DNA from: Pseudomonadota bacterium
Lineage (GTDB): Bacteria > Pseudomonadota > Alphaproteobacteria > RF32 > CAG-239
Direction of reading: 5' to 3'
DNA: 64,000 bases
Assembly (NCBI GenBank): GCA_918234285.1
Contig: CAKJXZ020000001.1
Coordinates: 1 to 64,000 of the forward strand
The notes below the pieces were generated by a model, which saw only the letters and a program-made list of their open reading frames with translations, had not been told where the DNA came from and did not search any database. A program made the position numbers and the translations under genes. Positions 4,106 through 51,900 of this stretch are shown piece after piece. Positions within the stretch are counted from its first letter, which is position 1. Each line of letters starts with the position of its first letter.

Positions 4106-4502
4106 AGCTTATTTCTCTTCCATTATATGATATTGTTCTAGATATTCTTTTATTAACACCAATACGCAAACCGGTAGGTACCTGAGTAGATTTTCCTGAA
4201 TTATAATCCTGTTCTGCTTTAGATGGAAATATTTTCACCTTTAACTTTTTTAATGCCTGTTTAGCGATGGTAATAAAATCAGTTTCCAGAATACGTTTAC
4301 CGGTTAATTTAGATTCTTTTGTTTTAGCAAATATACCTTGTCCAATTTTGATAAGAAATTGTTCTTTCACCATTTTTCTTAATACACGTCCAACCTGATC
4401 TCTATCGCTTAAATCATAGAAATCAGATAAAATAAATGCAGATACCTTACTCTTATTAATACGATATCTCATTTTAGCTTCTAACGTATTACCAACTGGC
4501 AT
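4086..4502 (-). CDS. DUF6088-like (AbiEi-type wHTH) antitoxin
   Basis: VGRVLRKMV..LIKIGQGIF wHTH segment and STQVP motif; overlaps the downstream AbiEii start. Confidence 0.8.
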   Translation of the reverse strand: MPVGNTLEAKMRYRINKSKVSAFILSDFYDLSDRDQVGRVLRKMVKEQFLIKIGQGIFAKTKESKLTGKRILETDFITIAKQALKKLKVKIFPSKAEQDYNSGKSTQVPTGLRIGVNKRISRTISYNGREISYEQSTI

Positions 4503-9257: not shown

Positions 9258-9316
9258 CGATTTATCCTTATAAATAATTAACAATGTATGTAAATTATCA
9301 CTTATATTTGATAAAA

Positions 9317-10234: not shown

Positions 10235-10289
10235 TTTTCCTCCATTTGGAGAGATTATACACCCGATTTGGTTAAATTTTCGTATGGAT

Positions 10290-10330
10290 AAAAAAGAACC
10301 GCTCGATTTCACTCGAACGGTTCTTTTTTT
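10290..10330 (-). terminator. intrinsic terminator
   Basis: AAAAAAGAACCG...CGGTTCTTTTTT hairpin directly after the HAD gene. Confidence 0.7.
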
Positions 10331-11165: not shown

Positions 11166-11295
11166 ATATTTTTTTTAATAATTTTTCTTATGAAACGATT
11201 GTACTAAAAATCAACCGTTTGAGTCAAGAAAAAAATTTGTCAATTTTTGAATTATTGCACAAAGACAGTGTGTTTTGGTGTCAGAAAATACCCCG

Positions 11296-12624
11296 TCAGG
11301 CGACTTCCGACTTCCGCGCGTCTTTTAAGGTAGCTTTAACTCGTGTAATCCGCATATTATCGATTTTTAAAACTTCGTATACACAGAACTCGTCTTCGGC
11401 CTTATCGCCGACTTTCGGTTCTTCGCCGATTAAGTTAAACACATAGCCGCCCATGGTGCTTTCTTCCAACTCGTGATACGGCAAATTCATGGCGTCATAA
11501 GCATCTTCCACCAGATAAACTCCGTCAAACTCGTAGTTTTTATCATTGATTTTCTTCAGCGGTTTATGCTCGGCGCCGTCGTGTTCGTCCTGAATTTCGC
11601 CGACCAGTTCTTCCAAAATATCTTCCATGGTAACCAAACCGGCAGTGCCGCCGTATTCGTCAACCACAATGGCGATATGAATATGCTTTTTCATCATTTC
11701 GTGCAACACATCGGAAATCGATTTATTTTCCGGCACAAACAAAATCTTGCGCACAATATGCTTCAAAATATCTTTATGAATCGCATCTTTATTTTCGAGC
11801 AAATCGCGAATGTGAATCATTCCCAAAATCTGGTCTTTATCTTCGTCACACAGCGGGAAACGCGTGTGCTTATGCTCGCGCACGAAGGCCATAATATCGT
11901 CGAAGCTGTCGTCTTTATAAATGCACTTCATATCCTGCCGCGGCACCATAATTTCGTGGGCGCAGATTTCCGAAAAATTGATGGCATTCTGAATAATTTC
12001 ACTCTCGGTATCATCAATCACCCCGCCCTTTTGCGACGCGTCGATAATCAGTTTGATTTCTTCTTCGGAGTGTGCATCTTCATTTTCGTCCGCCTTTTCG
12101 ATTTTCATCAGCTTCAAAATCCACAGCGACACATGGTCAAAGCACCAAATAATCGGGGTGCATACCTTATTAAACGTATACAGCGGAATCGCCACCAACA
12201 AAGCGTAGCGCTCGGTATCCTGAATAGCCATGGACTTTGGTACCAACTCACCCAAAACCACGTGCAACAACGTAATAAACGTAAAGGCAATACCAAAGCT
12301 CAAAGAATGCAACAACACGGTTCTTCCTTCAAAAAAACCGCCGAACAAATCTTCCAACAGGTTGGAAACCGCCGGTTCGCCGAGCCAACCCAAGCCAAGC
12401 GATGCCAAAGTAATACCCAACTGAGTGGCACTCAGATAAGTGTTCAGATGTTCGTTGATTTCGAGTGCGACTTTAGCGCGCTTGTTGCCGGACGCGGCCA
12501 GTTCTTCCAACTTGGTGCGGCGAATCTTTACTACTGCAAACTCGGATATTACAAAAAAAGCATTACAAAAAACAAGAAATAAAACTAAAATTAAATTTAT
12601 AATATAGGTCGACACGGGACTCAT
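11296..12624 (-). CDS. hemolysin/CNNM-CBS-CorC family membrane protein
   Basis: N-terminal TM CNNM domain (QLGITLASL, GELVPK), CBS pair (VDEYGGTAGLVTMEDILEE), CorC C-terminus. Confidence 0.92.
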   Translation of the reverse strand: MSPVSTYIINLILVLFLVFCNAFFVISEFAVVKIRRTKLEELAASGNKRAKVALEINEHLNTYLSATQLGITLASLGLGWLGEPAVSNLLEDLFGGFFEGRTVLLHSLSFGIAFTFITLLHVVLGELVPKSMAIQDTERYALLVAIPLYTFNKVCTPIIWCFDHVSLWILKLMKIEKADENEDAHSEEEIKLIIDASQKGGVIDDTESEIIQNAINFSEICAHEIMVPRQDMKCIYKDDSFDDIMAFVREHKHTRFPLCDEDKDQILGMIHIRDLLENKDAIHKDILKHIVRKILFVPENKSISDVLHEMMKKHIHIAIVVDEYGGTAGLVTMEDILEELVGEIQDEHDGAEHKPLKKINDKNYEFDGVYLVEDAYDAMNLPYHELEESTMGGYVFNLIGEEPKVGDKAEDEFCVYEVLKIDNMRITRVKATLKDARKSEVA

Positions 12625-12795
12625 GGTTTGAAATTACAATTTACCTCATTCTGTTAAAACAATAAAGTCATATTATATGATAATTGAGATATTGTCAATA
12701 AATGATTAAAAATAAGGCGAATTTATAATTTTATTGATTTAAACGTCTTTTTTTGCTATATTGTACTCGGTAACCAACGGACACGGAGCATTATC

Positions 12796-12981
12796 ATGGA
12801 TAAAAAAGCAAAAAAAGAACACTTGCAAAAAATAAAAGAACAATTCCGTGCGGTACGCGCCGGTCGACGCCAAGACGAAATAGAAGACCATAACGGCAAG
12901 CCGTTTACTTCCAAAAATCTGCCAAAGTTGAAAAACAAATACGACCGCAAACGGCTTAAAAATTTGCGCGACGAATACTGA
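12796..12981 (+). CDS. small basic hypothetical protein
   Basis: 61 aa, GGAG RBS, TTGATT...TATATT promoter upstream, fills an otherwise empty intergenic space. Confidence 0.65.
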   Translation: MDKKAKKEHLQKIKEQFRAVRAGRRQDEIEDHNGKPFTSKNLPKLKNKYDRKRLKNLRDEY

Positions 12982-13020
12982 TACAAATCGTTTGCAATCT
13001 CGAAACATCCCTGCCCGGCT

Positions 13021-15225
13021 TTATTTATTCGGGCACGCTTCTTCCAATTTTTGAATAATTTGTTCGCGAATATTTTCTTTTGTATAGAAAAACGAATCAT
13101 AAATTTTCTTGGTCTCAGCACTGATTTCAAAATCGTTTTCACAATATTCGATAACCCGATTAACCACGTCATCTTCCTTAAAATACACATTCGGCAAAAT
13201 ATATTGTTTGTAATCAAACTTTGCCAAGTCTTCGCGCTCAAATTGCGGAAGAGAAGAATCTTGTCGGTCAAGTATATAAAGTACCACCGGCTTGTTTTGA
13301 AACATAAAATCAAAAGCGACCGATGAAAAGTCGGTTAACAAACCGGAGCACTGCCGAATATATTGCGAAATATCCTGGGTGTCTATAATCTTAATATGTT
13401 TTTCTGCCGACAAATTAAAATCTATCTTCATATTGCTCATCAGGGCATGGTGCGGCGCAAAATATAAAGTTATATTTTTTTGTTGCAAATATCTCATCAA
13501 TTTTTCGTTGTGTAACAAACTAAGTAAGTTTTTCTTATACAGCGAATTCTCAAAAAGCACCATGTTAATGTGCCGCCACGTCAGCATCAACAAAATGCTT
13601 TTTTCTTTCGGTTTAGGCAATCCGTTCAGCAAGTCCCAGCGCGGTAAACCGACTTTCAGCAGTTTTTCCGGCGGGAAATCATATTTAAGGAACAATTTTT
13701 CTTCTCGATTCGAACACACCAAAAACTTATCAAACTTCTGCGGATACAGATATCCGGCATACAGTACGCTGTCTCGAGCATAAGTCGGACCATGTTGAAT
13801 AAAGACATATTGCCACGACGGATGTTTTCTGAAGAACATATCGGCCGTTCCCGAATTTTCGCCAAAAGAGGTCAGAACGCACTTGGTACGCAGCAACACC
13901 TCCCAGATTTTTTGCATAAACTCATTGGGGTGAGTGCGAGATGAAAAATTCAGGACAATAACGTGATCAAGTTTATTTTCCGCTGCCAGACGTTGATATA
14001 GCGCAGTTTGTTTAAGTACCACATAATATGCCGGAATATTCATCTCCCGCATTTTTGCAAACAGAGAATACGCATCAATCGCCTCCACGGTTGCATCGTG
14101 CAGGCAATCAAACAATAAATAGGTATCTTTAGGATATTTTTTGTAATTTTTCCGCACCAGATTAATATAGTGCTGTTCTGCACCCAGACGTCCGCACCGC
14201 CGCTTGATTTTCAAGGTCAGCCCGAAAATTTTAACCACCTTATGACGTGGCGTCTTCGAAACCTTTATAAACTTACCGAAGATATTTTTAATCTTGTCTT
14301 TCAGCCTGATTTTCAAATACCTTTTCATTTCGCGGTATTCTTTTTTGGTTAAAAAGTTTTTGGCATGTTTGAGCAGAACTTTACGATCTTTTCCCGAAAA
14401 GCCCATATAGTTCCACGAAAAATTCATTACCTTCATATAATGCAGATTTAATTCCATACGCGGCAACAAATTCTGCTCCGCCAAAAACCGCTCCAATTCT
14501 TTGGCCACCTCGCAAAAATCCAAATATCTTTGATTATATGAGCGAACAATCGAATTTTTGCGCAGACGATAAATATAACCGGCATATTTAACATAAGAAA
14601 CCGCCTTGGCCAAAACATGTCCTTTCAAAACAAACGGACAATCTTCACAGCACTTATGTTTGGAAAATAAAATATTGTTATTTATTAAAAATTCACGCCG
14701 ATAAATGCGGACAACCGAATAGCAAGGCGAAACCAACAACGTATCCAGCAACATTTCGCGGTCGATGTTTTGACCGTCGGGGACATTGACCGGCACCGCC
14801 TTAATATATTTTACGGCTTTTTCGAAAAAATTCTGCGGAATGACGCATTCGGTCCACTCCTGATAACGCACATAATCGCAGATAACTATGTCGGAATCGA
14901 GTTGTTTGGCTTGAGTGTATAATCTCTCATACATATCCTCTTTTACCCAGTCATCCGGGTCAACAAAACCTACATACTCGCCCTTTGCCTCGGCAATACC
15001 CAAATTACGCGCAACCCCCGGTCCCTCGTTTTCTTTATCTATTACCTTAATTCGCTTATCTTCAGCGGCAAACTTTTGTAAAATTGCCAATGAATCGTCG
15101 GTGGAGCCGTCATTGATACAGATAATTTCGATATCCTTAAGCGTCTGTGCCGTCAAACTCTCCAGGCATTTTCCCAAATATTCCTGCACGTTATAAACCG
15201 GAACGATGATACTGACTTTAAGCAT
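13021..15225 (-). CDS. GT2 glycosyltransferase fused to a TagF-like CDP-glycerol:glycerophosphate transferase
   Basis: N-terminal GT-A (VSIIVPVYN, NDGSTD, FVDPDD); C-terminal QHG, GLPRWD, TWR, PHH and TDFSSVAFDF motifs. Confidence 0.88.
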   Translation of the reverse strand: MLKVSIIVPVYNVQEYLGKCLESLTAQTLKDIEIICINDGSTDDSLAILQKFAAEDKRIKVIDKENEGPGVARNLGIAEAKGEYVGFVDPDDWVKEDMYERLYTQAKQLDSDIVICDYVRYQEWTECVIPQNFFEKAVKYIKAVPVNVPDGQNIDREMLLDTLLVSPCYSVVRIYRREFLINNNILFSKHKCCEDCPFVLKGHVLAKAVSYVKYAGYIYRLRKNSIVRSYNQRYLDFCEVAKELERFLAEQNLLPRMELNLHYMKVMNFSWNYMGFSGKDRKVLLKHAKNFLTKKEYREMKRYLKIRLKDKIKNIFGKFIKVSKTPRHKVVKIFGLTLKIKRRCGRLGAEQHYINLVRKNYKKYPKDTYLLFDCLHDATVEAIDAYSLFAKMREMNIPAYYVVLKQTALYQRLAAENKLDHVIVLNFSSRTHPNEFMQKIWEVLLRTKCVLTSFGENSGTADMFFRKHPSWQYVFIQHGPTYARDSVLYAGYLYPQKFDKFLVCSNREEKLFLKYDFPPEKLLKVGLPRWDLLNGLPKPKEKSILLMLTWRHINMVLFENSLYKKNLLSLLHNEKLMRYLQQKNITLYFAPHHALMSNMKIDFNLSAEKHIKIIDTQDISQYIRQCSGLLTDFSSVAFDFMFQNKPVVLYILDRQDSSLPQFEREDLAKFDYKQYILPNVYFKEDDVVNRVIEYCENDFEISAETKKIYDSFFYTKENIREQIIQKLEEACPNK

Positions 15226-16199
15226 TATTTTCCCCCGTTTCTGAGCCGGATTTTAATAAGCCGCATAAGCACCTTAAAACGTAACTCGCGATAGTAAAAA
15301 CACTTTTCGTTATGTAACTGTTTAAGCGTCGCAAACAAAAATTTATCTTTCTCTTTTCTGCCGTCTTTGTTGTGATAAACCGCATTAATCAGATGTCGCA
15401 AAGAAGCACCTATACGGATTTTGCGAACAATCGGCCATAATTTTTGCCTTTCCGGCGTCGCAAAATAACGCGTCACCGCCCGAATGCCGGTGGCATAATT
15501 ATCAATTTTGCGTACCGAAAACGAACTGCGCATGGTTGAAGTATTGTCGGTGTTATAACCATACAAAGCATACGGCACCGTTGCATACTCTTTAATGTCG
15601 GCGAACAAACAGGTAACCCACGGCCAATCTTCAAAATAAATTCCCTCAATAAACGGACGGTCTTGAATGAGCTCACGTTTATAAAGTTTGTTCCAAATCA
15701 CCGAACCCGACGCCTCGTTTTGCAAAATATGCAAGAGCGGATTTTGATGCGTCTCGTACTGCAAATCAGCCATATTTATCAATGCCGGATCATATTGCTT
15801 AGTTTCAACCGTTGCTACCACTCCAACCCCTGATTTTTGCGCTGCGGTCAGCAAAACTTCCAACGTTTGCGGATGAATAAAATCGTCGGCATCAACAAAA
15901 AAAACATAATCGCCGCCGGCAATTTTTAATGCTACATTACGCGCCGCAGATTGCCCTTTATTTTCCTGTGTTATTACTTTTAATCTTTTATCTTTTTGCG
16001 CATAAGCGGCCAAAATTTCCGCACAGTTATCGGGAGAGCCGTCATCAACACAAATAACTTCCAGTGCCGAGTGGGTTTGCCCCAAAACGCTCTCCAAACA
16101 ATGCGGCAGATATTCCGCACAATTATAAACGGGGATGATAACCGAAATCATCGCCGATGAAATATCCGTTGCCGGTATGTTTTGCGCACGATTTAACAT
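15225..16199 (-). CDS. GT2 glycosyltransferase
   Basis: ISVIIPVYN, DDGSPD, FVDADD, WNKLYK and FEDW motifs. Confidence 0.9.
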   Translation of the reverse strand: MLNRAQNIPATDISSAMISVIIPVYNCAEYLPHCLESVLGQTHSALEVICVDDGSPDNCAEILAAYAQKDKRLKVITQENKGQSAARNVALKIAGGDYVFFVDADDFIHPQTLEVLLTAAQKSGVGVVATVETKQYDPALINMADLQYETHQNPLLHILQNEASGSVIWNKLYKRELIQDRPFIEGIYFEDWPWVTCLFADIKEYATVPYALYGYNTDNTSTMRSSFSVRKIDNYATGIRAVTRYFATPERQKLWPIVRKIRIGASLRHLINAVYHNKDGRKEKDKFLFATLKQLHNEKCFYYRELRFKVLMRLIKIRLRNGGK

Positions 16200-24833: not shown

Positions 24834-24950
24834 ATCTATTCGCCGCACTTGACTTTTACGGCAAAAACGAATATCTTGAAAGCACTCACGAACGTCGTCG
24901 TTTTATATTTGCGGCGACGTTCTTCAAGATGTTTTTATAAGGAAAAAGCC

Positions 24951-25310
24951 ATGCGTAAATTGATAACTCTTATCGGAATTTTCTTAATGTATTCTTTTGC
25001 GGCCGCTGCCGATAACATTGAGTACGGATACAACTCTCGCGGCGAATATGTCCCAATCAAAGTCGACGGCAAGCAGGTCGAATACGGCTATAACTCCCGC
25101 GGTGAATATGTCCCGACCAAAGTCGGCAACGATAACATTGATTACGGCTACAACTCGCGCGGCGAATATGTCCCGACCAAAGTAGGCCACGATAACATTG
25201 ATTACGGCTACAACTCGCGCGGCGAATACGTACCGACCAAAGTCGGTGACCGAGATATCGGCTACGGCTACAACTCCCGCGGCCAATTCGTACCGGTAAA
25301 TTTAAAGTAA
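24951..25310 (+). CDS. small secreted protein of five 20-aa tandem repeats (YGYNSRGEYVP)
   Basis: ATG 24951 with AAGGA; signal peptide ending AAAA-D; 60-bp in-frame repeats. Confidence 0.8.
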   Translation: MRKLITLIGIFLMYSFAAAADNIEYGYNSRGEYVPIKVDGKQVEYGYNSRGEYVPTKVGNDNIDYGYNSRGEYVPTKVGHDNIDYGYNSRGEYVPTKVGDRDIGYGYNSRGQFVPVNLK

Positions 25311-28934: not shown

Positions 28935-29516
28935 TTAGGCTTTTGCCGGTTCGGCATTTTCAAAATTCAAAAATCCGAGTGCGGTCAAGCAATAACCGAA
29001 GTGCTGAGTTATATTGATGTAGTTATGCCACATCTGAAACTCGCTATGTTTCTCCACACCGCGAATATCCAGTTCGTGTTGCAACGATTTATTGAGCCAC
29101 ATTTCGGCATGACCGCGAGCAATGTCATCATCAATATGCGTATCAAAATATTCCACATATTCGGCCGCCCAGCCACCGATTAACTCGCCGTCGGAATTCT
29201 TGCCCCAACAAATACCGACGCCGGTAGCAATTGCTTTATGGTCGTCGTGACAAGCGCCGTTACCGGCCATAATCACTTCCAAAACCGCACCGTGCTTAAA
29301 CTGATTCACCACGCGGTCGACCGGCACAATATTGCCGTAAATTTCTTTAGGCAAAACCGAGGTATAAGGAATAACGTTGAAGTTTTCAATGCGAGCCTGC
29401 ATTAAGGCCGAATCGTAGCAAAATGTTTCAAACGGTTGCGGCGGAATACCGTCGTTGGCCTCGCCGGCACCGCCGGTAATAAACGCTAAAGTCGGATAAC
29501 GAACTCCATAAGTCAT
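28935..29516 (-). CDS. aaxB: pyruvoyl-dependent arginine decarboxylase
   Basis: [34 protein letters not shown] self-cleavage site, [18 protein letters not shown]; closely resembles chlamydial AaxB. Confidence 0.9.
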
Positions 29517-29589
29517 CTTTTTCTCCTTTCTGGTTAAAACAATGTTATACGCCAGATGACTTATGTCGTTTCAGGCGGCTTTCAATATA
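29507..29589 (-). promoter_or_regulatory. aaxB leader with a start-codon-sequestering helix
   Basis: Perfect 12-bp inverted repeat 29507-29518/29554-29565, one arm covering the ATG; TATATT -10 at 29584-29589. Confidence 0.5.
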
Positions 29590-29623
29590 GCCTTTGGATG
29601 AGATAACCGATAAATCGGCGGTT

Positions 29624-30040
29624 TTATTTTTTCAGTTCGGTGCGAATCGCGGTTGTGGAACGCACCGGCAACAAATCTTTCGGGATACGGTTGCTCACGA
29701 TGTAGCGCACACCCAAACCTTCAATAAATTCTCGTTTTTCGGCGCTATCACCATCGGAATTCACAAAGAAAATATCCGGTTTAATCCGCTTGATTTCCTC
29801 GGCGAAATCCAATTTACCGGAACCACGCGCCACAAACGCCTGATGCACAAATTTTATGGACGACACCATATACAAACGCTCGTCTTCGTTATACAGTGTC
29901 GGGCGATGTTTAAGTTCTTCCACGGTTTTATCAGAGCCGATGGAAACATACAAATCGCCGTATTGCGCCGCCTCTTCAAAAAAGCGAATATGTCCGCTGT
30001 GCAACACATCAAAACAACCCGATACAAACACCTTTGTCAT
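29624..30040 (-). CDS. HIGH-motif cytidylyltransferase (TagD/RfaE-II-like)
   Basis: SGCFDVLHSGH, ER motif, RSTT C-terminal motif. Confidence 0.88.
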   Translation of the reverse strand: MTKVFVSGCFDVLHSGHIRFFEEAAQYGDLYVSIGSDKTVEELKHRPTLYNEDERLYMVSSIKFVHQAFVARGSGKLDFAEEIKRIKPDIFFVNSDGDSAEKREFIEGLGVRYIVSNRIPKDLLPVRSTTAIRTELKK

Positions 30041-30041
30041 A

Positions 30042-30992
30042 TTATTTTTCCTCTATCGATAACAACGGAATAAAGCCGAAGAGACGGTATACTTCTTCTT
30101 TCTTTGTGTTATCATACTGTTCCATAAATAGATTTATACTTTTCTCATATTGAATTTGTTCCCGAGGACTGAATTGATGTTTTAATCTGTTATATGTGCC
30201 TATAAGATTATTAATATAAATCCTATTGTATTGTTTTTTAATTTCGGAAGAAACCGACAGTCCTTCTACCAAATTAATCACTTTTTCACATATTTGCAAA
30301 TAATCAGAAAAATGTTTACTCCAATTCTGTGTGGTAGATGTTGAATGCACTCGTCTAAAATATAACGTTTCTTTGCAAATTCCACAGCGCCGTGCCATCA
30401 AAAAAGCATTCGTAAAAAATACATCGTCCTCAAAATACAAATTTTCCGGAAAAGTAATATTATTTTTTTGTAAAAATTCATGTTTATAGAAAGTCAAACA
30501 AGCAGAGACCGCCACTTTATCTATAAACTTAGTGCACTGTTTATAATTGAAACATTTTGTATCGAAATCTTCTGGTAAATATTTGAATTGGTAATATGGA
30601 TTTTCTTGCAACTTTCTATTGAAATCTATGAAATTAATACCGCTGAAAGATAACATATCCAAATTATTTTCAAAAGCCCGTTTATATAAAATTTGTAAGG
30701 TATCTTCACGCCAATAATCGTCGGAATCCAAAAAGGCAATATACTCGCCAGTTGCTACCTTCATTCCATTATTCCTTGCCGCACCCTGTTTTAAATTCGA
30801 TTGTGTAATTATTTTTATGCGTTTATCTTTTTTAGCATATTGCTTTAATATTTTTAATGAGCCGTCGGTCGAGCCATCATCGACACAAATTATTTCAACA
30901 TCTTTGAGTTTTTGATTAATAACACTGTTCAAACATTCATGAATATATTTTTCTGTGTTATAAACCGGAATAACCACACTAACTTTAGGCAT
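30042..30992 (-). CDS. GT2 glycosyltransferase with C-terminal LFGFIPLLSIEE tag
   Basis: VSVVIPVYN, DDGSTD, FLDSDD and YFED motifs. Confidence 0.9.
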   Translation of the reverse strand: MPKVSVVIPVYNTEKYIHECLNSVINQKLKDVEIICVDDGSTDGSLKILKQYAKKDKRIKIITQSNLKQGAARNNGMKVATGEYIAFLDSDDYWREDTLQILYKRAFENNLDMLSFSGINFIDFNRKLQENPYYQFKYLPEDFDTKCFNYKQCTKFIDKVAVSACLTFYKHEFLQKNNITFPENLYFEDDVFFTNAFLMARRCGICKETLYFRRVHSTSTTQNWSKHFSDYLQICEKVINLVEGLSVSSEIKKQYNRIYINNLIGTYNRLKHQFSPREQIQYEKSINLFMEQYDNTKKEEVYRLFGFIPLLSIEEK

Positions 30993-30993
30993 T

Positions 30994-31728
30994 TTATTGC
31001 TCCTCTATTGATAGTAACGGAATAAAACCGAATAGATGCCAACGTTGTTTCATCGTATAATAATTACTTTTCACAATTTGTTTTTCGTACAAATGTTTGG
31101 CGTTCATATTTGATCCAACACCACCACGCCAAAAGTCAGCAACAATCATCTTCAGCGGCTCAAATTTGCAATTGTTTTGTGCAAAGACTATCCATTTTTC
31201 CCAATCGCTAACTATGCGATACTCCTCATTATACATTCCGTATTTTTCAAACAGTTCACGCCTGATAAACGATGATTGATGACCGATAACATCGTTATAA
31301 AAATATGCTTTTGATATTTTATCAGGATAAACTCGAAGTTGTATTGTCCCATCGATATTATGTATATTCATACAGCCGTACAGCACATCTGCGTCGTATT
31401 CTTTATTCTTAAATACCTTTTCCAAAACATCGTCTTCCGCAAAACGATCGCCGCCGTTCATAAAATTAAGCCACTTACCTTTGGCCAGTCTAATGCCTTT
31501 GTTCATCGCATTATAAATGCCTTTATCCGGTTCCGAAATCAAAATATTGATACGTTTTTGATATTTTTTGAGCACATCAACCGTGCCGTCGGTGGAGCCG
31601 CCGTCAACCACAATCCACTCAAAGTCTTGCCATTTTTGCTTGACAATGCTCTTACAGGTTCGCTCGATTTCATTTTTTATATTGTAGCAAATTGTTATAA
31701 TGCTCAAAGTCGGTGTTTTCTTTTTCAT
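30994..31728 (-). CDS. GT2 glycosyltransferase (WcaE/WfgS-like) with C-terminal tag
   Basis: SIITICYN, DGGSTDG, DKGIYNAMNKG, NGGD and HQSSF motifs; start placed at ATG 31728 after GAGGA. Confidence 0.9.
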   Translation of the reverse strand: MKKKTPTLSIITICYNIKNEIERTCKSIVKQKWQDFEWIVVDGGSTDGTVDVLKKYQKRINILISEPDKGIYNAMNKGIRLAKGKWLNFMNGGDRFAEDDVLEKVFKNKEYDADVLYGCMNIHNIDGTIQLRVYPDKISKAYFYNDVIGHQSSFIRRELFEKYGMYNEEYRIVSDWEKWIVFAQNNCKFEPLKMIVADFWRGGVGSNMNAKHLYEKQIVKSNYYTMKQRWHLFGFIPLLSIEEQ

Positions 31729-31729
31729 T

Positions 31730-32815
31730 TTACATTTCCTCAATACTCAGTAACGGAATAAAACCGAACAGTTTGTATGTCGACTTGTATCCTTTATATA
31801 TTCTTCTTTTATTTTCATTTATAAGCTTATTTATTTTTAGTCTGTAGTTCTCATCCTCCAATTCTCTCCGGATACTTTTATATAGTTTATCTGTGTAATT
31901 AACCACTTTAACAGAGGCTTCCTGTTCTGACATTGATGAAAAATGCCAACGGGACACCGAATTGATAAGATTCAAGTAACTGTCTAGATATTTAGTACCA
32001 TACTGCGATATTCTATTATATAGTGCAGAAAGCGCTACCATAAAACATTCAGGATCTTTTTCTTTTACTTGGGAAATTGATTGATGAGGCGTATACCTAT
32101 AATGTACTAATACATCGTCTATAAAGGTAATTTTTTTACATATAATCAAATACGACAAAACAAAATATGTATCATTTGAGTGATGAATACTCTGAAATCT
32201 CCGATTATATTTGATAATATTGCTTCTTTTAAAAAGCTTATCCCATGTATATCCGCAACAGATTTGAAAAACATTATCCGCAACATCTTCTGGTGAGAAA
32301 ACTTTCCTACTGGGAATAAGATCTTTTCTCAGTCCCCAAGGCATATCCAAATTTCCCTTTTCTGTTTTCATTTGAGAACGACAAATACATAAATCTGCCT
32401 TTTTCCTTGTAATTTGTTCATATTGTCTTTCCAATAAATCCAACTCAAAAAAGTCGTCGGAGTCCAAAAAACATAAATATTCACCTTTGGCTATGTTTAA
32501 GCCAGCATTACGCGCCACTCCTGCATATAAATTCTTCTGTGTCATGATGGTAAATCGTTTATCACTTCTAGCATATTCCCTCAGAATTTTCAGTGAATTA
32601 TCTGTTGAGCCATCATCTACGCAAATAATTTCTATTTCTTTGAGCGTTTGCTTGACAACACTTTCCAGACACTCCCGTAAATATGGTTCCACATTATAAA
32701 CCGGAATAACCACACTGACTTTCGGAGTATAATCGATTTTGTTTTGCACCAAAATCTCGGCCTGTGTCTCTGGCTCTCCTTCGGCATTTTGAACTGTTAT
32801 CAGATTTTTTTTCAT
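31730..32815 (-). CDS. GT2 glycosyltransferase with C-terminal tag
   Basis: VSVVIPVYN, DDGSTD, FLDSDD and WDKLF motifs; start ATG 32815. Confidence 0.9.
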   Translation of the reverse strand: MKKNLITVQNAEGEPETQAEILVQNKIDYTPKVSVVIPVYNVEPYLRECLESVVKQTLKEIEIICVDDGSTDNSLKILREYARSDKRFTIMTQKNLYAGVARNAGLNIAKGEYLCFLDSDDFFELDLLERQYEQITRKKADLCICRSQMKTEKGNLDMPWGLRKDLIPSRKVFSPEDVADNVFQICCGYTWDKLFKRSNIIKYNRRFQSIHHSNDTYFVLSYLIICKKITFIDDVLVHYRYTPHQSISQVKEKDPECFMVALSALYNRISQYGTKYLDSYLNLINSVSRWHFSSMSEQEASVKVVNYTDKLYKSIRRELEDENYRLKINKLINENKRRIYKGYKSTYKLFGFIPLLSIEEM

Positions 32816-32816
32816 A

Positions 32817-33251
32817 TTACTTATTTCTCCATCTTTCCAAAATCCAGCTGGAAGAATTGGCTTTATTATCTCCGCCGACACCGAATGCTAATTCGACATC
32901 GCATTCGGCACAAACCGGACCTTCCGGAATATTGTCTTTACCTCTGTCACCGCCGTTGGCAAATACCAATTTATCATGCGGATATTTGGCTCTGGCTTTA
33001 CGAATGCCATCAGAAGCAGAATTATCAGTATCATCAAATTCTAAAACATCAATAACCCCTTTTAGGGCCGCCATAATAACTTTACGGGTATCCATCGTAT
33101 AAAAGTTTTTACCCTTTTTGCGGCACAGCCAAGCATCCGAATTTACCAATACTATAACCCCGTCAGAATGTTCTGCGGAATCCAATATCATATTAATATG
33201 ACCTTCATGAAGCGGATCAAAACCGCCGGAAACAATGTAGTATGTTTTCAT
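32817..33251 (-). CDS. HIGH-motif cytidylyltransferase
   Basis: SGGFDPLHEGH, FANGGDR and KANSSSWIL motifs; start ATG 33251. Confidence 0.88.
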   Translation of the reverse strand: MKTYYIVSGGFDPLHEGHINMILDSAEHSDGVIVLVNSDAWLCRKKGKNFYTMDTRKVIMAALKGVIDVLEFDDTDNSASDGIRKARAKYPHDKLVFANGGDRGKDNIPEGPVCAECDVELAFGVGGDNKANSSSWILERWRNK

Positions 33252-33252
33252 A

Positions 33253-34245
33253 TTAAACTTCCTCAATACTGAATAGTGGTAAAATCCCAAAAAGTTTGTA
33301 TTTGCATACATGTTTATTTTGTTTTAGCTTGACTTTTTTTATCGGGGCATTAATCCAATCAATTATTTGCATTTTATTCGCTTCCCACTGACGGAATCCG
33401 TTCTCTATATATTCCGCAACGTTTTTCTGAATCTGTGCAATATTTTTCATTTCGATTTTCTGCGGATTGGAAAAATCATATAAAAAGCCGGTTTTTCCAT
33501 TGACTATATATTCGTTCATCGTCGGATTATTCGGTGCAATCACGCAGCGCCCCTGTGCCATCGCATCCAAAAAGCTCATTCCTATACCCTCTTTCAAGCG
33601 CGGAGCCATATATAGTGCCGATTTCTGCAACACGGTATACATATCCTCTTTTTTATCAAACCAAACCGAGGTGGTTCGCTTTTGCTTGATTGGATAATCG
33701 ACAAAGTTTTGATTCGGATCCATCGCCTGATGTAAATGGACATGAGAAACTTTTGAAACGTCAAACAATTTATCAACCAAAGCTAAATCTATTTCTCGAC
33801 GGCGTTGCCAGAAAAACAGCGATTTCTTTTTACCCCAATCGTTGATTTTACGCGGTTCGGGAAAATACTGAATGTATTTACTGTCAAACCCCATTTTTTG
33901 TAATTGTTCATGTAAATAGCGGCAAAAGCAAATTATGGTTGTTCCCGCATATTCCTGCCAAACCGGAGCTGTAGTTGATGGAATACCATCATACATCGGA
34001 AAGAAAATACTTTTACGAAAAGGGACATGCTTTTTCAACATATCCATACTAGGCATCATTTGCCAACAAACAACCGTATCAAACTTTTCGCCTCTTATTT
34101 CGTCAAGCCATTGTTCCACCGGCTTTATGTAAGGATCAATATAAAATTTTGTAATTTCAAAATGATTTTCAAGCATCTTAACAACGAAGTCGGCAGATTT
34201 TGTTTTTTGATGATACGAGTGCCCGATGAACAAAAGCTTCTTCAT
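33253..34245 (-). CDS. GT-B (GT4-like) glycosyltransferase with C-terminal tag
   Basis: EGIGMSFLDAMAQG, MNEYIVNGKTGFLY. Confidence 0.82.
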   Translation of the reverse strand: MKKLLFIGHSYHQKTKSADFVVKMLENHFEITKFYIDPYIKPVEQWLDEIRGEKFDTVVCWQMMPSMDMLKKHVPFRKSIFFPMYDGIPSTTAPVWQEYAGTTIICFCRYLHEQLQKMGFDSKYIQYFPEPRKINDWGKKKSLFFWQRRREIDLALVDKLFDVSKVSHVHLHQAMDPNQNFVDYPIKQKRTTSVWFDKKEDMYTVLQKSALYMAPRLKEGIGMSFLDAMAQGRCVIAPNNPTMNEYIVNGKTGFLYDFSNPQKIEMKNIAQIQKNVAEYIENGFRQWEANKMQIIDWINAPIKKVKLKQNKHVCKYKLFGILPLFSIEEV

Positions 34246-34259
34246 AAAGTTGCTCCTTA

Positions 34260-34469
34260 CTATACCACTTTTTTGCTGACTTTCATTAACGGAAGACCGA
34301 AGGTATAATATTTGGTCGTGATGTTGTTTTCAAAACGACGAATCGTAAACACCGGTAAGCCCAAAATCTTCCATGTTTTTTTGCCGCCGCGCTGCACCCA
34401 GCCGTATATTGGCAAAATGCAGAACAACTTAATGGTGCGCGAGTGCTTGATTACGTTTTGTTTAGCCAT
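34260..34469 (-). CDS. 69-aa basic protein built from three copies of the glycosyltransferase C-terminal motif
   Basis: AGGAG RBS; first gene of the operon; IKLFCILPIY / WKILGLPVF / YYTFGLPLM repeats. Confidence 0.72.
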   Translation of the reverse strand: MAKQNVIKHSRTIKLFCILPIYGWVQRGGKKTWKILGLPVFTIRRFENNITTKYYTFGLPLMKVSKKVV

Positions 34470-34598
34470 TTTTCTCTCCTATAAAACCACTTTTTTGCAA
34501 CTAAACTTTAATTGCAATTCTTTGTATTGTCAGATAGAGAATCTATATCTTTGCGGATTGTGATTGTCAAGCAAAATTACGTATTTTTAGGTGTATAA

Positions 34599-36725
34599 TC
34601 AGCGATATTTTTTAATGACTTCAATCGCGCGTCTGAAATCCGCATTTTCGGCATAATCTTCAATTTTTACCGGCAATTTGCGCCGCCAATTCGGGTGTTT
34701 ATCGCGGTCCGTTCCCGGCAGATTTTGCAACAACTCCACCCCGAAAATATCTTCAAGTTGTGCCAAATACACTATACTGCACGATGAAGATACATACGCC
34801 TCAACTGCTTCCATAATACCCTGCGGATAACCTTCGCCGTACAGACAATCGCCCTGCCGTGGTTTATCTGCCGGCCATACACCTGCCCAATCCAGTGCCC
34901 CGAGCAAGCGTTTACGTTCATCTTCGCGTCCCTTATATTGATTTTGCCGCTCAACATCATCCAACATTTTCAGATTATACATGGTTTCGATATCATAACC
35001 GAACCAGCGCATCTTGAGCGGCGCCATATCATGGGTACCGACGGAACAAAACGCACTCGACGCAAAATCATACGGTGCCTTAAAATCGCCGTTGCCGTTC
35101 CAACGTTCGGCCCACAATACACTCAGTGAATAAATGCCGCGATTGTGAAGCTTATCGATAAATCCGTCCGGCACATTACCGATGCTTTCACCTACAACCA
35201 TGCACTTATTCAAATAACTTTCCAGTGCCACGATACCGAGCATGTCGTCGAAGTTATAATAAACATAAGTGCCGTCTTCGGAAGCGTCCGGAATAATATA
35301 TAAACGCATCAGACTCATAACGTGGTCAATTCTGAGTGCCCCCGCACCTTGCATCGCCGCCCGCAGAATCTTGATAAACGGCCGATATGTCGCTTCTTTC
35401 AAGCGATACGGATTAAATGCGCCCAAACACCACTTTTGCCCGGTCGGAAAAAATACATCCGGCGGAGCTCCGGCACCGCAGTTTTTAATAAATAAATCGC
35501 TTTCCGCCCACAGCTCGGCGCTGTCTTTGCATAGGCCCACCGGCAAATCGCGATACAGACCGATACTCAGATTATTATCTTTTATGGTGTGATAAACCGC
35601 TCGCAGTTGCTCGTCGGCAACATATTGCAAAAACTTGAAAAACAGTATTTCTTTTTGATGCGACTTCTTAAATTCCGCCACCGCCGGAGAATGCGGATTT
35701 TGCAATTCTTTGGGCCACGCATTCCACCCGCCGTAAACTTTATCTTTTTGCTTCGAATACAGTGCTTGGAAAGTCGCCAGATTAATCAAATCGACACCGG
35801 CTTTTTCACAATATTTTGCAAATTTTTTATATTCTCCGCTCTGAGGTTTGGTAATAAATTCGGCAAAAATCTTTTTGAGGACATTTATCTTCAGATTATA
35901 CACGGTCGTATAATCTATATCCTTGGCAGAACGCGCCTTGGCAAGAGCTTTTTCATCAACGTACTGCGGCTTGTAACCGGCCACCTTTTCTACATCGATA
36001 TAAATCGGATTCAAAAACAACCGACTGATGGACGAATACGGACTGGCATTTTCCGGATAATCATGAAACAACACGTTGAGCGGATTAACCCCGATAACAT
36101 CAGCTCCGACCTGAGCGCACATCAACGCAAAATTTTGCAAATCGGTAAAATCGCCGACTCCCCAATTGCGCGCGCTGGTCAGAGCGTAAAGCTGAATAGC
36201 AAATCCCCACGGCTTTTTGTGTTGCAAAACTTCCGGCACATAACATTTATCGGGAGTTACCGCCAGTACCGAGCGCGATAAGGCTCCGTCCGTTTGCAAT
36301 TCTATATCGTAATATTGCGGTGCCAATTCGGAGGTAATTTCCACTTGCACACGCACATATTCGTTGCGGCCGATTTGTTTGGTCTCGACAATATTTCTGG
36401 TATATTCTATTTGTAGCGGCTTGCCGTTAAGATAAAGATGCAAGCTCAGCGAATCCGCTTTTTCTGCCTTAATCACCGCATCAAAAAATTTTTTCTGCGT
36501 ACGCACCACATAAATCGGTTCCAAAACATATTGCCAACGTCTGTCCTCTATTTTTTGCAACAAATGCTCGCTTTCGCTTTTATCTTTAAGCTTAAAGCCC
36601 AGATAATTTACCATCTTTTGTAACGTTTCATCGTCAACGGTATATATTTTATGGTTCTGTGCCGCATCACTGAAAGTTTTGGCAATGCCGATTTTTGTAA
36701 GTAATGTATCCCAACTGTACGCCAA
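34599..36725 (-). CDS. malQ: 4-alpha-glucanotransferase (amylomaltase, GH77)
   Basis: WGVGDF, ASPYS, GAPPD, LRIDHV, THD and NLPGT motifs. Confidence 0.93.
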   Translation of the reverse strand: MAYSWDTLLTKIGIAKTFSDAAQNHKIYTVDDETLQKMVNYLGFKLKDKSESEHLLQKIEDRRWQYVLEPIYVVRTQKKFFDAVIKAEKADSLSLHLYLNGKPLQIEYTRNIVETKQIGRNEYVRVQVEITSELAPQYYDIELQTDGALSRSVLAVTPDKCYVPEVLQHKKPWGFAIQLYALTSARNWGVGDFTDLQNFALMCAQVGADVIGVNPLNVLFHDYPENASPYSSISRLFLNPIYIDVEKVAGYKPQYVDEKALAKARSAKDIDYTTVYNLKINVLKKIFAEFITKPQSGEYKKFAKYCEKAGVDLINLATFQALYSKQKDKVYGGWNAWPKELQNPHSPAVAEFKKSHQKEILFFKFLQYVADEQLRAVYHTIKDNNLSIGLYRDLPVGLCKDSAELWAESDLFIKNCGAGAPPDVFFPTGQKWCLGAFNPYRLKEATYRPFIKILRAAMQGAGALRIDHVMSLMRLYIIPDASEDGTYVYYNFDDMLGIVALESYLNKCMVVGESIGNVPDGFIDKLHNRGIYSLSVLWAERWNGNGDFKAPYDFASSAFCSVGTHDMAPLKMRWFGYDIETMYNLKMLDDVERQNQYKGREDERKRLLGALDWAGVWPADKPRQGDCLYGEGYPQGIMEAVEAYVSSSCSIVYLAQLEDIFGVELLQNLPGTDRDKHPNWRRKLPVKIEDYAENADFRRAIEVIKKYR

Positions 36726-48901: not shown

Positions 48902-51900
48902 TTATTTTCCGTTTTCATAAAGTTGCTGAGCCGACACGTAGTCAAATTTACCGCTGCCGAGCAACGGCGGAGTTGCCGTATACACTACCTCGCGCGGAAT
49001 CCATAATTCGCTGACCCCCTGTTTTTGAAAATACTTTTTGATTTCGGTAACGTTGGCTTTGTTATCCGACGTTATCAGCACCAATTTTTCGCCTTTTTTC
49101 TCGTCTTCAACCGCGATAATTCCTTGCTTGACATCAGGATACAGCGCATCCAGCAACTGTTCCACCGCTGTCAACGACACCATTTCTCCGCCGATTTTGG
49201 CGAAGCGTTTGGCGCGGCCGCAAATCGAAACGAACCCTTCTTCGTCAATGCTGACGATATCTCCGGTATCATACCACTCGCCGGCCTTTTCCAAAACCTT
49301 CGGCTTGTCGGCACGCATGTAGCCGAGCATAACATTGTCACCCTTAACCTCGAGCCGACCGCCCTCTGCTACACCGTTGACTTTTTGCAACCTATATTCA
49401 ATATGCGTCAGCAAACGACCTACCGTATTTTCTTTGCAAAACATCGGCGTATTTACCGCCAACACCGGCGAAGTTTCGGTAGTTCCGTAACCTTCATAGA
49501 TTCTGACACCGAATTTTTTCATCCATAATTCTGCGGTGCGGGCTTTGAGTTTTTCGCCTCCCATCACGGCAAAACGCACCGTGAAAAAGTCGTACGGATG
49601 GGCACGCCGACCGTAACCGAAAAGAAAAGTATCCGTGCCCAAAATTGCGGTTGCCTGCAAACCGTAGGCTATTTCCGGAATAATGCGATAGTGCAACGGC
49701 GACGGATAAAAATAAGTCTTAACTCCGTTTAACATCGGCAACAGCGTACCCACCGTGAGCCCGAAAGAATGAAACATCGGCAACGCGTTCAGAATCACAT
49801 CACGGCTGGTAAACGGCACGGCCAAACGAATCTGCAACACGTTGCTGAGCAGATTGCGGTGTGACAGCAAAACCCCTTTCGGCAAACCTTCCGAACCGGA
49901 AGTAAACAGTATGGCCGCCACATCATCGGCCTTGGCCCGTGACTTGCGGCGCAATATATAATTCCATAAACCTTTTAATTTATCGCCTAAACTTATTTTT
50001 GCGGACAAATCTTCCAAATACACCAATTCGCATTTTGCCTTATGCGCACATTTTTCCAACCGCTCCAAATTGCCTTGCTCGATAAATTTATGAGCGGTTA
50101 TAATCTTTTTCAAACCGACGGTTTTCAAACACGATGTAAACTGCTTATCGCCCAAGGAAAAGTTCAGCATTGCCGGCACTTTATCAATACTTTGCAAAGC
50201 AAAAAAACTGACAAGTCCGACCAGACTGTTCGGCAGTAAAACCCCGATTTTTTCTTCCTGCGGCATAAATTTCTTAAATAACGTGCCCAACACGTACATC
50301 TTCAAAAGTATTTGCTTATAATTTAGCGTTTTGCCACCTATATCCGTGGCCAGCGGATGCTTTGAACCATATTTTTTCTCGGCTGATAACAACGCATTAA
50401 ACAACGGTATATCGATATTTTCCGTAACATACATCATCTCGTTTAACATATCGTGGAGTTGTAATGCCGCTTTTTGTCTCCGCTCGCGTGCCAACAGTCC
50501 GTTGTCGGTTTTAATTTCCTGCGGAGGCAGAATCGTCAGCGTAATTTGCGGAAAAGAACGAGCCTTTACCAAGTGACCTATATACGAAAATTTGGAATAT
50601 TGCGCGCCGTCGATACGCACCGGAACGATTTTGGCGCCGGTTTTTTCCGCCACCACGCCGGTACCTTCATAAATTTTCATCAAAGTTCCGGTTACGCTGA
50701 TACGTCCTTCCGGGAAAATCATTACCGTACGGCCCTGATTAATCACCTCCATCAAAGTACGCAACGCCAGTGGACTGGCTGGATTAAGCGGGCAAAAACG
50801 CACCAACCCGTCGAGCATTTTCACATACCATTTTTTGCCCCACGCCTCGTCGATGGCAAAGGTCATTTTGCGCGGCAAATACACCGCCGCCAACACTCCG
50901 TCCAAAAGCGAAACGTGGTTTGCCACCACCAACGTACGCGATTTGGAATTCTCAAAATTCTCCAGACCGTTTACTTTAACCCGATACAGCGCACCCAATA
51001 TCATATATAAAAGCGAACGCGCCAGAGAATCCGGCAGCAATTTGCTGATATAGCAAGCCATCAACAAACTAAGCACCGCCATTACCAAGAACAAATCGAC
51101 GATTTCCAAACCGAGCGCCAACAATGCCACCGAGCTCAGCGCCACCAACACCATACCCAGTGAATTGATAATGTTGTTGCCGGCAATAATCGAGGCCACA
51201 CAACTTTTCGGTGCCCGTTTTTGCATCAAAGCATTGAGCGGCACCACATATACTCCGCCGGCGCAAGCAAACAAGAAAAACAGCACCAACAATGTCGCAC
51301 CGCGCGGCATAAGCACAAACTCGCTCAAAGCAATCGGAGCAGCCGGAGCCGCGAAACCTTTGGCCAAAAAGTAGATAGCAAAAGCGCAGGCACTCATACA
51401 AAAGGCGCTGAGCGGAACATATAACACCGAAACCCTGCCTTTAAGCAGTTTATTACATAGTAACGATCCGGCACCGACACCGACCGAAAACAGCACCAAA
51501 CACAGCGTTACCACTTCCTGCTCGGTGTTCAAAACCTTACTGCACAGCGGAAACACGTTGGTCAGCACAAAGGCACCGAGCATCCAAAACCAGCTGGCGC
51601 CCAAAATGGCGCGAAAAATAATGACATGCGAGCGTATTAGTTTATAATTGTCGCGAATCTGCTTAAACAAATTAAAGTTAATGATTAAATTTTCATCGGC
51701 ACACGGTGTATTCGGAATTTTATAGGCCGCCGCCATACCGATAAGCGAACAGCAAATCAATAACGCAATACCGGCATTGACCGACAGCATCGTACCGAGT
51801 ATCGTACCCAAAATAATTGAAATATACGTACTTCCCTCAACATAAGCATTACCGGCAATCAGCTCCTCCTGGCGCAGCAATTGCGGCAACAGCGCATATT

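Follow-up and report, generated by a model that had tools for sequence, protein, structure and literature searches.

Why should four glycosyltransferases of two different folds, encoded in one gene array, end in the same short peptide? The array is located in a 64-kb stretch of DNA (here referred to as the window, 64,000 nucleotides), in which four minus-strand enzymes, three of the GT2 and one of the GT4 family, share the C-terminal sequence LFG(F/I)(I/L)PL(L/F)SIEEx-stop. The common tail comprises 14 residues, and the four enzymes are otherwise unrelated. It is a long-standing question how soluble glycosyltransferases of different folds stay together at the membrane to assemble a single defined glycan, and bacterial glycan metabolons have, to our knowledge, seldom been demonstrated directly.

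The glycosyltransferase array

All genes of the array are located on the minus strand. The operon starts with the gene of a 69-aa protein (34260..34469), which is preceded by AGGAG 8 nt upstream of its ATG. It is followed by a GT4 glycosyltransferase of the GT-B fold (330 aa, 33253..34245; PF00534, E 1.4e-13, 51.2 bits at a gathering cut-off of 26.4), whose one-hairpin tag YKLFGILPLFSIEEV (33256..33300, stop at 33253) places GAGGAA 8 nt upstream of the ATG of the next gene. The latter encodes an untagged cytidylyltransferase-like protein of 144 aa (32817..33251; PF01467, E 9.7e-9). Three tagged GT2 enzymes with matches to PF00535 (gathering cut-off 23.3) come next: GT2c (361 aa, form P0012; 31730..32815; E 5.9e-38, 130.9 bits) with the tag YKLFGFIPLLSIEEM (31733..31777, stop at 31730), the WcaE-like GT2b (244 aa; 30994..31728; E 2.7e-25, 89.7 bits) with WHLFGFIPLLSIEEQ (30997..31041, stop at 30994), and GT2a (316 aa; 30042..30992; E 2e-41, 142.2 bits) with YRLFGFIPLLSIEEK (30045..30089, stop at 30042). 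GT2b also matches TIGR04009 of NCBIfam at E 4.7e-30, yet remains under the cut-off of that model. The last gene of the array encodes a further cytidylyltransferase-like protein without tag (138 aa, 29624..30040; PF01467, E 2.7e-13). The starts of GT2b, GT2c and the 144-aa cytidylyltransferase-like protein were corrected to 31728, 32815 and 33251, respectively, and the genes of the array thus abut without overlap. The transferases begin straight with their catalytic domains.

An earlier note on this DNA had described the four C termini, had assigned the enzymes to two folds and had stated that the cytidylyltransferases lack the tag, all of which is borne out: the four tails end as described, the enzyme classes agree with the Pfam matches, and tagging within the window comprises 4 of 4 transferases versus 0 of 2 cytidylyltransferase-like enzymes, neither of which matches the hairpin-unit HMM described below. 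In related loci, tagged genes of the GT2, GT8 and Stealth types similarly follow one another, and in related MAGs the locus is found between malQ and an arginine decarboxylase gene with differing gene content. It should be mentioned that all of the evidence is computational and comes from genomes of uncultured organisms, and that the lineage with the one-hairpin form is represented by MAGs of Alphaproteobacteria from the ruminant gut.

Conservation of the shared C terminus

When all six reading frames of the 64 kb were scanned with a regular expression, the motif turned up in the four tagged ORFs and once in the ORF of the 69-aa protein, and nowhere else. A hairpin-unit HMM that was trained solely on stand-alone small proteins was run against 351 ORFs (48,494 aa) and yielded matches, at 8.5-27 bits, exclusively to the four tags and to the three hairpin units that the 69-aa ORF encodes, the tags of GT2c, GT4 (residues 315-329), GT2a and GT2b scoring 17.8, 15.8, 13.1 and about 8.6 bits, respectively. 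Five shuffles of these ORFs yielded 0 matches at 8 bits or more, with a maximum of 6.3. The match between the four enzymes is far beyond chance.

The synonymous codons listed in the earlier note are correct for the serine (TCG, TCA, AGT, AGT) as well as for the first leucine (CTC, CTA, CTG, CTT). Counted by eye over the 12 codons from LFG to SIEE, the GT2 tags are mutually identical in protein sequence (12/12) and differ pairwise in 5, 6 and 6 codons, all of them synonymously, while the GT4 tag differs from them by 5-8 synonymous and 3 non-synonymous codons. Thus, the peptide has remained unchanged despite synonymous divergence, which shows selection on the protein, as had been claimed. The codons of the final two glutamates (GAGGAA), however, double as the ribosome-binding site from which the next gene is translated. 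Since these two residues are double-coded with a Shine-Dalgarno sequence, the tag is conserved in part at the level of the DNA or RNA, and it provides a tidy example of a peptide end that shares its codons with the translation signal of the following gene.

The tag as one unit of a hairpin module

As judged by sequence comparison, the tag represents hairpin 1, a single unit (consensus GKKKYKLFGIPVLKIKKK), of an unannotated repeat module. The full module comprises three predicted beta-hairpins in about 60 aa and is basic (median net charge +11) and aromatic-rich; the number of hairpin units per protein ranges from 1 to 4. A MAFFT alignment of 26 GT2 proteins aligned the tag to hairpin 1 of the full module. 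The view of the tag as a self-contained invention therefore has to be replaced by that of a one-unit truncation of a module of 1-4 hairpins, which elsewhere forms a C-terminal domain. In the lineage of ruminant-gut Alphaproteobacteria the enzymes retain hairpin 1 alone, ending in Glu-Glu.

The 69-aa ORF encodes the module in free-standing form. Its three units match the unit HMM at 23-27 bits, which confirms the link between this protein and the tag that had been envisaged earlier. The protein has 14 K+R and 1 D+E, a pI of 10.7 and 9 close homologs. Structural modeling by AF2, which yielded a model of moderate quality (pLDDT 74, pTM 0.50, 10 sequences), predicted six antiparallel strands with an (F/L)(G/C) pair at every hairpin turn, in line with the beta-hairpin character that had been proposed for the tag. 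On GT2a (mean pLDDT 89.6) the tail at residues 294-316 is predicted to be unstructured, with the pLDDT falling from 67 to 45, and without packing on the catalytic domain. The free-standing module heads the operon in all four genomes in which the head is visible, i.e. in the window and in the loci L005, L027 and L020. A membrane handle alone, as discussed below, leaves this copy at the operon head unexplained.

In agreement with the novelty suggested at the outset, the 69-aa protein matched 0 families at E<=1 in Pfam-A and NCBIfam, no match in these databases reached the last 15 residues of any of the transferases, and no family better than E 0.0048 was obtained for 25 stand-alone members. We found no description of the module in the literature. 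In the PDB, a profile search reached E 0.086 at best, with unrelated proteins, and the best Foldseek match was TarM (E 0.44, TM 0.53), with nothing at E<=0.001.

Several known types of C-terminal signal were considered and rejected. An amphipathic helix of the LgtC/TagA type does not agree with the AF2 models, in which the module folds into six beta-strands and the GT2a tail lacks secondary structure; the center of the motif holds Gly and Pro. Sorting signals of the PEP-CTERM, LPXTG or GlyGly-CTERM type were dismissed since the tagged proteins end 3 residues past the hydrophobic 10-mer, leaving no transmembrane helix behind the motif. Pfam matched neither dockerins nor cohesins in the 7 array proteins, and no shell-protein family was detected among these and 43 further ORFs of the window as would be expected for an encapsulin cargo peptide. 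The comparison with dockerins and encapsulation peptides drawn in the earlier note is thus restricted to a resemblance in logic, the defining features being absent.

Distribution of the module

A profile search for the 69-aa protein among 1.84 billion representatives resulted in 99 matches at E<=1e-3, 8 of which, from TPR or low-complexity proteins aligned over numerous segments, were judged to be spurious. In the other 91 the module is C-terminal (46), stand-alone in proteins of up to 100 aa (26 clusters of small proteins), N-terminal (10) or internal (9). Pfam families were assigned to 43 of the 64 non-spurious matches longer than 100 aa, and 21 were without any. The families are GT2, GT4, GT8, Stealth, DUF4422, TupA ATP-grasp, TagF-like, RgpF, FkbM and DUF1796, all of them of the glycan-pathway type (43/43), and a second search similarly identified glycan-pathway families on 29 of 30 longer matches. 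Confinement to glycan-pathway enzymes rather than random spread, on which the earlier proposal depended, is therefore observed. Its notion of a portable tag likewise holds across folds, as the tag occurs on GT2, GT4, GT8, Stealth, GT32-like and SGNH-like proteins. The tags match a profile that was built without them, they reside at extreme C termini, and they are found on glycan enzymes; on these grounds tag and module appear to form one family, which we propose as new. A handle of 14 to 60 residues, without database entry, thus marks at least 10 enzyme families of one pathway type. As it is compact and occurs both fused and free, the question of metabolons becomes accessible to simple fusions and pull-downs, and a new domain model would flag glycan loci in uncultured gut bacteria for annotators.

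Proposed function and alternatives

With a probability of roughly one half, the module and its one-hairpin remnant may be regarded as putative non-catalytic handles for localisation at the membrane. Such a handle would retain enzymes whose substrate is a lipid-linked or growing glycan at the inner membrane, on its cytoplasmic side, where aromatic and hydrophobic hairpin residues might insert at the interface and flanking basic residues might bind anionic lipid, while makers of soluble precursors, such as the cytidylyltransferases, could dispense with it. A lone hairpin would be too small to fold alone and would need a surface or a partner; either the membrane or the free-standing module may serve as such, or the two together. 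Consistent with a handle are the basic and aromatic-rich nature of the module, its distribution on glycan enzymes, the unpacked tail of GT2a and the restriction of tagging in the window to transferases; the occurrence of one to four units fits additive surface binding. Precedents are described in two studies, in which a C-terminal appendage tethers TagA to the membrane (PMC6493773) and the C-terminal 25 residues of LgtC are predicted to do so (PMC9952996). However, the tails in the window are not basic (net charge of the last 25 residues about -1, +1, +3 and +3) and end in two acidic residues, and should thus be repelled by anionic lipid. In addition, the membrane tails known from bacteria are amphipathic helices, and an anchor made of a beta-hairpin has little precedent.

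It might alternatively be speculated, with some doubt, that the hairpin at the end of each enzyme extends, edge to edge, either the six-stranded sheet formed by the 69-aa protein or other tags, so that a shared intermolecular sheet gathers the four transferases and the acidic EE end pairs with the basic stretch where the first strand of the partner begins. The homology of the 69-aa protein to the tags and its position at each of the four visible operon heads are in favor of such docking, as are the free edge that a lone hairpin would offer in the way hairpin 1 uses its edge toward hairpin 2, the lack of structure of the tag on its own enzyme (GT2a model), and the complementary charges of the EE ends and the highly basic 69-aa protein. 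Also, EE is kept, as GAA GAA, in the loci L017 and L031, where a ribosome-binding site is not needed. On the other hand, all three hairpins of the module are present in cis on enzymes elsewhere, and the variable unit number suits an additive surface binder better than a lock and key. We are more hesitant still about the corresponding history, according to which the lineage would have split a three-hairpin domain into enzyme tags and a free hub, the tags zipping by strand addition onto the hub, and onto one another, into a candidate assembly line. If true, such an assembly would be a cytoplasmic, self-homologous counterpart of dockerin and cohesin for a membrane-bound glycan line.

The net charge of the module would also suit binding of an anionic phosphate glycopolymer or a pyrophosphate-lipid acceptor that is fed to the active site, in the manner of accessory domains on teichoic-acid glycosyltransferases. 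Its partners include Stealth and TagF-like proteins and cytidylyltransferase-linked loci, which as a rule are involved in the synthesis of phosphodiester polymers, and RmlT is described in PMC11697029 to have a second teichoic-acid binding site on its oligomerisation domain. This appears unlikely, as the one-hairpin tags of the window no longer have the basic residues and terminate in EE, and as the module shows neither sequence similarity to solved structures nor a significant fold match to TarM. Less likely again is a feature of the DNA, in which conserved 3' end, ribosome-binding site and ATG form a cassette junction by which translation is coupled and which supplies homology for swapping of transferase genes, the peptide being incidental. 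In support, GAGGA(A/G) is positioned 7-9 nt upstream of the next ATG in 15 of 16 tags with an adjacent start (the 16th has AAGGAC), gene content differs at one and the same locus, blastn homology blocks break off at the tags' 5' edge (30079/30080 and 31780 in the window), and the array is a low-GC island (33-37% versus about 45%). Against it stand the 5-6 synonymous differences per 12 codons at unchanged peptide, the equally tight junctions behind the untagged cytidylyltransferases, a longest identical DNA run between two window tags of about 20 nt, and the existence of the unit in a predicted three-hairpin domain and in separate genes. Finally, a short motif common to the extreme C termini of several proteins of one pathway is reminiscent of a degradation or quality-control signal read by a C-terminal protease or adaptor. 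This is highly improbable: the very last residue varies freely (K, Q, M, V, I, N), the motif is the repeat unit of a domain and often internal to it, and Pfam revealed no protease or adaptor gene among the genes of the array.

Relation to known systems

Among the systems closest to a membrane handle are the tails of TagA and LgtC, which are, like the module, short non-catalytic C-terminal extensions on cytoplasmic enzymes with lipid-linked acceptors, hydrophobic, basic and disordered or poorly predicted off the membrane (PMC6493773, PMC9952996). As described there, they are amphipathic alpha-helices limited to one enzyme family, whereas the tag is a predicted beta-hairpin that is identical across unrelated folds, occurs in 1-4 repeats and, in addition, has a gene of its own. 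The oligomerisation domains of TarS, TarP and RmlT resemble the module in that they are extra non-catalytic domains which determine the quaternary structure and contact the polymer (PMC11697029). The closest, although non-significant, Foldseek match to the module is the beta-sheet domain of TarM (E 0.44). Unlike the tag, all these domains are large and family-specific, do not form a portable 14-residue unit and are without sequence match to it.

Dockerins and cohesins share with the tag the principle of a common C-terminal handle on different families and a separate protein with repeats. Dockerins are calcium-binding modules of roughly 70 aa on secreted enzymes and have no sequence kinship with their cohesin receptors; here, in contrast, the small protein has repeats homologous to the handle, and everything is cytoplasmic. 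A short peptide on unrelated glycosyltransferases is also used for localisation in the case of GOLPH3, which is reported to recognise the short cytosolic tails of many Golgi glycosyltransferases (PMC13408441). That system shows no homology to the tag and differs in being eukaryotic, in relying on N-terminal tails and in employing an unrelated adaptor.

The seven-gene array and its shared C-terminal tail

Seven tightly packed genes on the minus strand occupy 29.6-34.5 kb of the window and form a low-GC island of 33-37%, compared to about 45% on both flanks. The array starts with a 69-aa ORF (34260-34469), which has no match at all in Pfam or NCBIfam, followed by the genes for a GT4 transferase (33253-34245), a cytidylyltransferase-like protein (32817-33251), the transferases GT2c (31730-32815), GT2b (30994-31728) and GT2a (30042-30992), and a second cytidylyltransferase-like protein (29624-30040). 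Three of the products belong to Pfam family GT2, one to GT4 and two, both untagged, to PF01467. The earlier note had described a tail shared by the four transferases, and reading of the C-termini bore this out: they end in YRLFGFIPLLSIEEK, WHLFGFIPLLSIEEQ, YKLFGFIPLLSIEEM and YKLFGILPLFSIEEV. When the entire window was scanned for the pattern in all six frames, the motif appeared exclusively at these four ends and once in the 69-aa ORF, and the last 15 residues of the transferases have no match in Pfam, in agreement with NCBIfam. A sequence TTGACA-17 nt-TATAGA can be read upstream of the 69-aa ORF; it is absent from the list of a promoter scan across 29300-34700, which, with 15 sites compared to 20.6 +/- 3.9 in shuffles, is uninformative.

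The tag as one unit of a larger module

Within the 69-aa protein the motif recurs in three degenerate copies, KLFCILPIYGW, KILGLPVFTIRR and YTFGLPLMKVSK; the protein is highly basic, with 14 K+R residues and a single D+E residue. Structural modeling with AF2, based on a family of 10 sequences, predicted six antiparallel strands (pLDDT 74, pTM 0.50), each motif copy forming a hairpin that turns at its (F/L)(G/C) pair. An HMM of this hairpin unit, 18 positions long and trained on stand-alone proteins only, recognized three units in the 69-aa ORF (23-27 bits). In the four transferases it matched once each, at the extreme end (8.6-17.8 bits), and it had no match in the cytidylyltransferases of the array. 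When all 351 ORFs of the window were searched, matches were restricted to the 69-aa ORF and the four tags, while shuffled ORFs never exceeded 6.3 bits. In an alignment of 26 GT2 proteins, the window tags coincide exactly with hairpin 1 of the complete module carried by the homologues; following "SI", the tags end in EE-x, whereas the full module runs on with K-x-R-G-G. Homology thus identifies the tag as a single unit of a larger module, of which the 69-aa protein is a free-standing copy. Among the proteins collected, the HMM detected one to four units.

On its own enzyme the tail appears to be disordered. AF2 modeling of GT2a (26 sequences) yielded a confident catalytic domain (mean pLDDT 89.6), while the tail beyond the last helix (residues 276-293) has no secondary structure, with pLDDT declining from 67 through 57 to 45. 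The absence of docking in this model suggests that the tag may fold only when a partner surface is provided.

No counterpart was recovered from the structural databases: Foldseek returned 0 PDB matches for the 69-aa model at E<=0.001, a sequence-profile search of the PDB gave nothing significant, and the homologue P0006 had no usable match in the ESM Atlas. The motif strings were likewise unmatched in the literature, and keyword searches retrieved helix-type tails and accessory domains only; as most subscription journals were outside the scope of these searches, an earlier description is possible. We consider the module an unannotated domain family that occurs both in an unusual one-unit form, as a tag, and on its own as a separate protein.

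Distribution among proteins of glycan pathways

A profile of the 69-aa family, searched against 1.84 billion representatives, had 99 matches at E<=1e-3, 40 of them at E<=1e-10. Eight were dropped as spurious, being TPR/NB-ARC or low-complexity proteins aligned in 4-18 short stretches. In 46 of the 91 retained, the module ends at most 12 residues from the C-terminus of a protein of more than 100 aa; a further 26 are stand-alone, at up to 100 aa, and the module is N-terminal in 10 and internal in 9. Net charge over the matched module ranges from +4 to +16, with a median of +11. Pfam was run on the 72 matches longer than 100 aa, a set that includes the eight spurious ones: 43 carry Pfam families, every one of a glycan-pathway type (GT2, GT4, GT8, Stealth, DUF4422, TupA ATP-grasp, TagF-like glycerophosphotransferase, RgpF, FkbM methyltransferase, DUF1796, DUF6492 and FUT8-like), and 21 have none. 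Similarly, when 25 stand-alone members were used to query longer proteins, 29 of the 30 matches proved to have glycan-pathway families. All carriers of the module are from uncultured organisms. Nine proteins of 126-266 aa (P0059, P0060, P0068, P0075, P0083, P0085, P0091, P0094 and P0100) make up a family that begins with the three-hairpin module and continues into a Gln/Glu-rich, coiled-coil-like tail; none has a Pfam match.

A profile of the four 40-residue tails identified 11 longer proteins in addition to those of the window. Seven end in KLFGFIPLLSIEEK; these comprise GT2 proteins, a Stealth-GT2 fusion and two proteins lacking a Pfam family, one of them with a GDS-type motif near its N-terminus that by eye resembles an SGNH fold. 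Three others (GT32-like, GT8 and GT2) have their units in tandem, two to four per protein with basic linkers in between, and no EE. In the remaining one, P0022 (843 aa), the tag is internal at residues 88-103 and is followed by DUF1796 and a cytidylyltransferase domain, an arrangement suggestive of a fusion or of loss of the stop codon at the tag junction.

Selection on the tag and overlap with the ribosome-binding site

The codon usage of the tags described in the earlier note proved correct on recount. Counted by eye, the three GT2 tags share 12 identical residues, and pairwise comparison of the 12 codons shows 5, 6 and 6 differences, every one synonymous. This divergence under an unchanged peptide shows that the tag peptide is under purifying selection, and recent gene conversion does not account for the identical residues.

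Alignment of the four tag junctions revealed an invariant GAGGA, TAA and one base before the ATG of the next gene; thus, the Glu-Glu codons of the tag are double-coded as the Shine-Dalgarno site of the gene that follows. In all, 18 tags were surveyed, drawn from the window and from six related loci; they do not represent 18 independent cases, as the loci L019 and L036 are close relatives. In 16 of them a start codon overlaps the stop or lies at most one base away, with GAG GA(A/G) in 15 and AAG GAC in one. The two tags without an adjacent start (loci L017 and L031) have GAA GAA, and Glu-Glu is therefore retained as peptide even where no binding site is needed, its codons being tuned to the binding site wherever one is. 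The junctions behind the untagged cytidylyltransferases are equally tight, so gene packing requires no tag.

Tagged loci in related genomes

A degenerate DNA pattern of the tag, scanned over 185,579 species genomes, matched 38 stretches. In eight, located on 6 contigs, the motif closes an ORF that is at least 60 aa long; the remaining 30 contain stops, fall in short frames or are internal, and are close in number to our chance estimate of about 27. All eight loci are from ruminant-gut MAGs titled Alphaproteobacteria, "uncultured proteobacterium" or "Bacterium". The tagged genes occur in runs, such as GT2, GT2, Stealth and GT8 in L036 and L019, and GT8 followed by GT2 in L005, and the 69-aa gene comes first in all four cases in which the head of the run is visible (the window, L005, L027 and L020). 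At L020 1995-2886 (minus strand), the tagged GT8 behind the 69-aa gene is split into two ORFs (2734-2886 and 1995-2762), which may reflect a frameshift or an assembly error. In the genomes RUG13901 and Tb.RUG.243, the locus is found at the same site, between malQ and a pyruvoyl arginine decarboxylase gene, and its transferases differ. In the comparison with L019, L020 and L036, blastn blocks (window 29407-30080 and 30801-31780) reach no further than the 5' edge of the tags. Such a mosaic is typical of variable glycan loci, and the tags may also serve as cassette boundaries.

Possible role of the module

The comparisons establish homology of tag and module, repeat architecture, C-terminal position, restriction to glycan enzymes, selection acting on the peptide, and double use of its end as a ribosome-binding site; the module itself would be a non-catalytic handle for localisation or assembly. 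We favor, at a probability of roughly 0.5, that module and tag attach the enzymes peripherally to the cytoplasmic face of the inner membrane, where lipid-linked acceptors are located. This is suggested since the module is basic and aromatic, the number of units varies, the transferases are tagged and the enzymes for soluble precursors are not, the tag is unstructured on its own enzyme, and C-terminal tethers are known for TagA (PMC6493773) and, as a prediction, for LgtC (PMC9952996). Counting against it, the tails in the array are near neutral and end in EE, the known tethers are helices, and the free-standing copy is left unexplained.

That copy is accounted for by the main rival, in which single hairpins would add to the sheet predicted for the 69-aa protein or to each other, their acidic ends meeting a basic hub. 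We consider this reading less likely than membrane attachment; the two are compatible and both might apply. Of lesser weight is binding of the module to an anionic polymer, by analogy to the accessory domains of RmlT and TarP (PMC11697029). Conservation of the tag mainly as a DNA-level cassette junction, to which the ends of the blastn blocks might point, is also a lesser rival; the synonymous divergence speaks for selection on the peptide. A degron was likewise weighed as a lesser rival and rejected.

The closest known systems in function are found on bacterial glycosyltransferases, namely their C-terminal membrane tails and their accessory oligomerisation domains; the closest in logic are dockerin-cohesin pairs and GOLPH3, which recognizes the tails of Golgi transferases. 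Among the defining features of these systems that were checked, none was observed in the tag or module. The tag lacks the defining features of a sorting signal, a dockerin or an encapsulin peptide, and these assignments were rejected.

Other features of the window

A second glycan-type cluster (9317-16199, minus strand) encodes a choline-kinase-like protein, a HAD protein, a 734-aa fusion of GT2 and TagF-like domains and a 324-aa GT2. The unit HMM detected no hairpin unit in this cluster, so tagging is specific to the low-GC array and not genome-wide. Another gene (6105-9320, minus strand) encodes a 1071-aa protein consisting mostly of ankyrin repeats; proteins rich in such repeats are unusual in free-living bacteria and more typical of host-associated ones. 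A second low-GC stretch (33-36%, 1-6 kb) contains two AbiEii-family nucleotidyltransferase toxin genes, one adjoining a DUF6088 gene (2227-3081, plus strand; 3203-4105 and 4086-4502, minus strand). An ORF at 24849-25310 (plus strand) without a Pfam match has about five tandem YGYNSRGEYVPTKVG-like repeats behind a hydrophobic, signal-like N-terminus, and a 1124-aa ORF at 48902-52276 (minus strand) combines MFS transporter, acyltransferase and AMP-binding domains.
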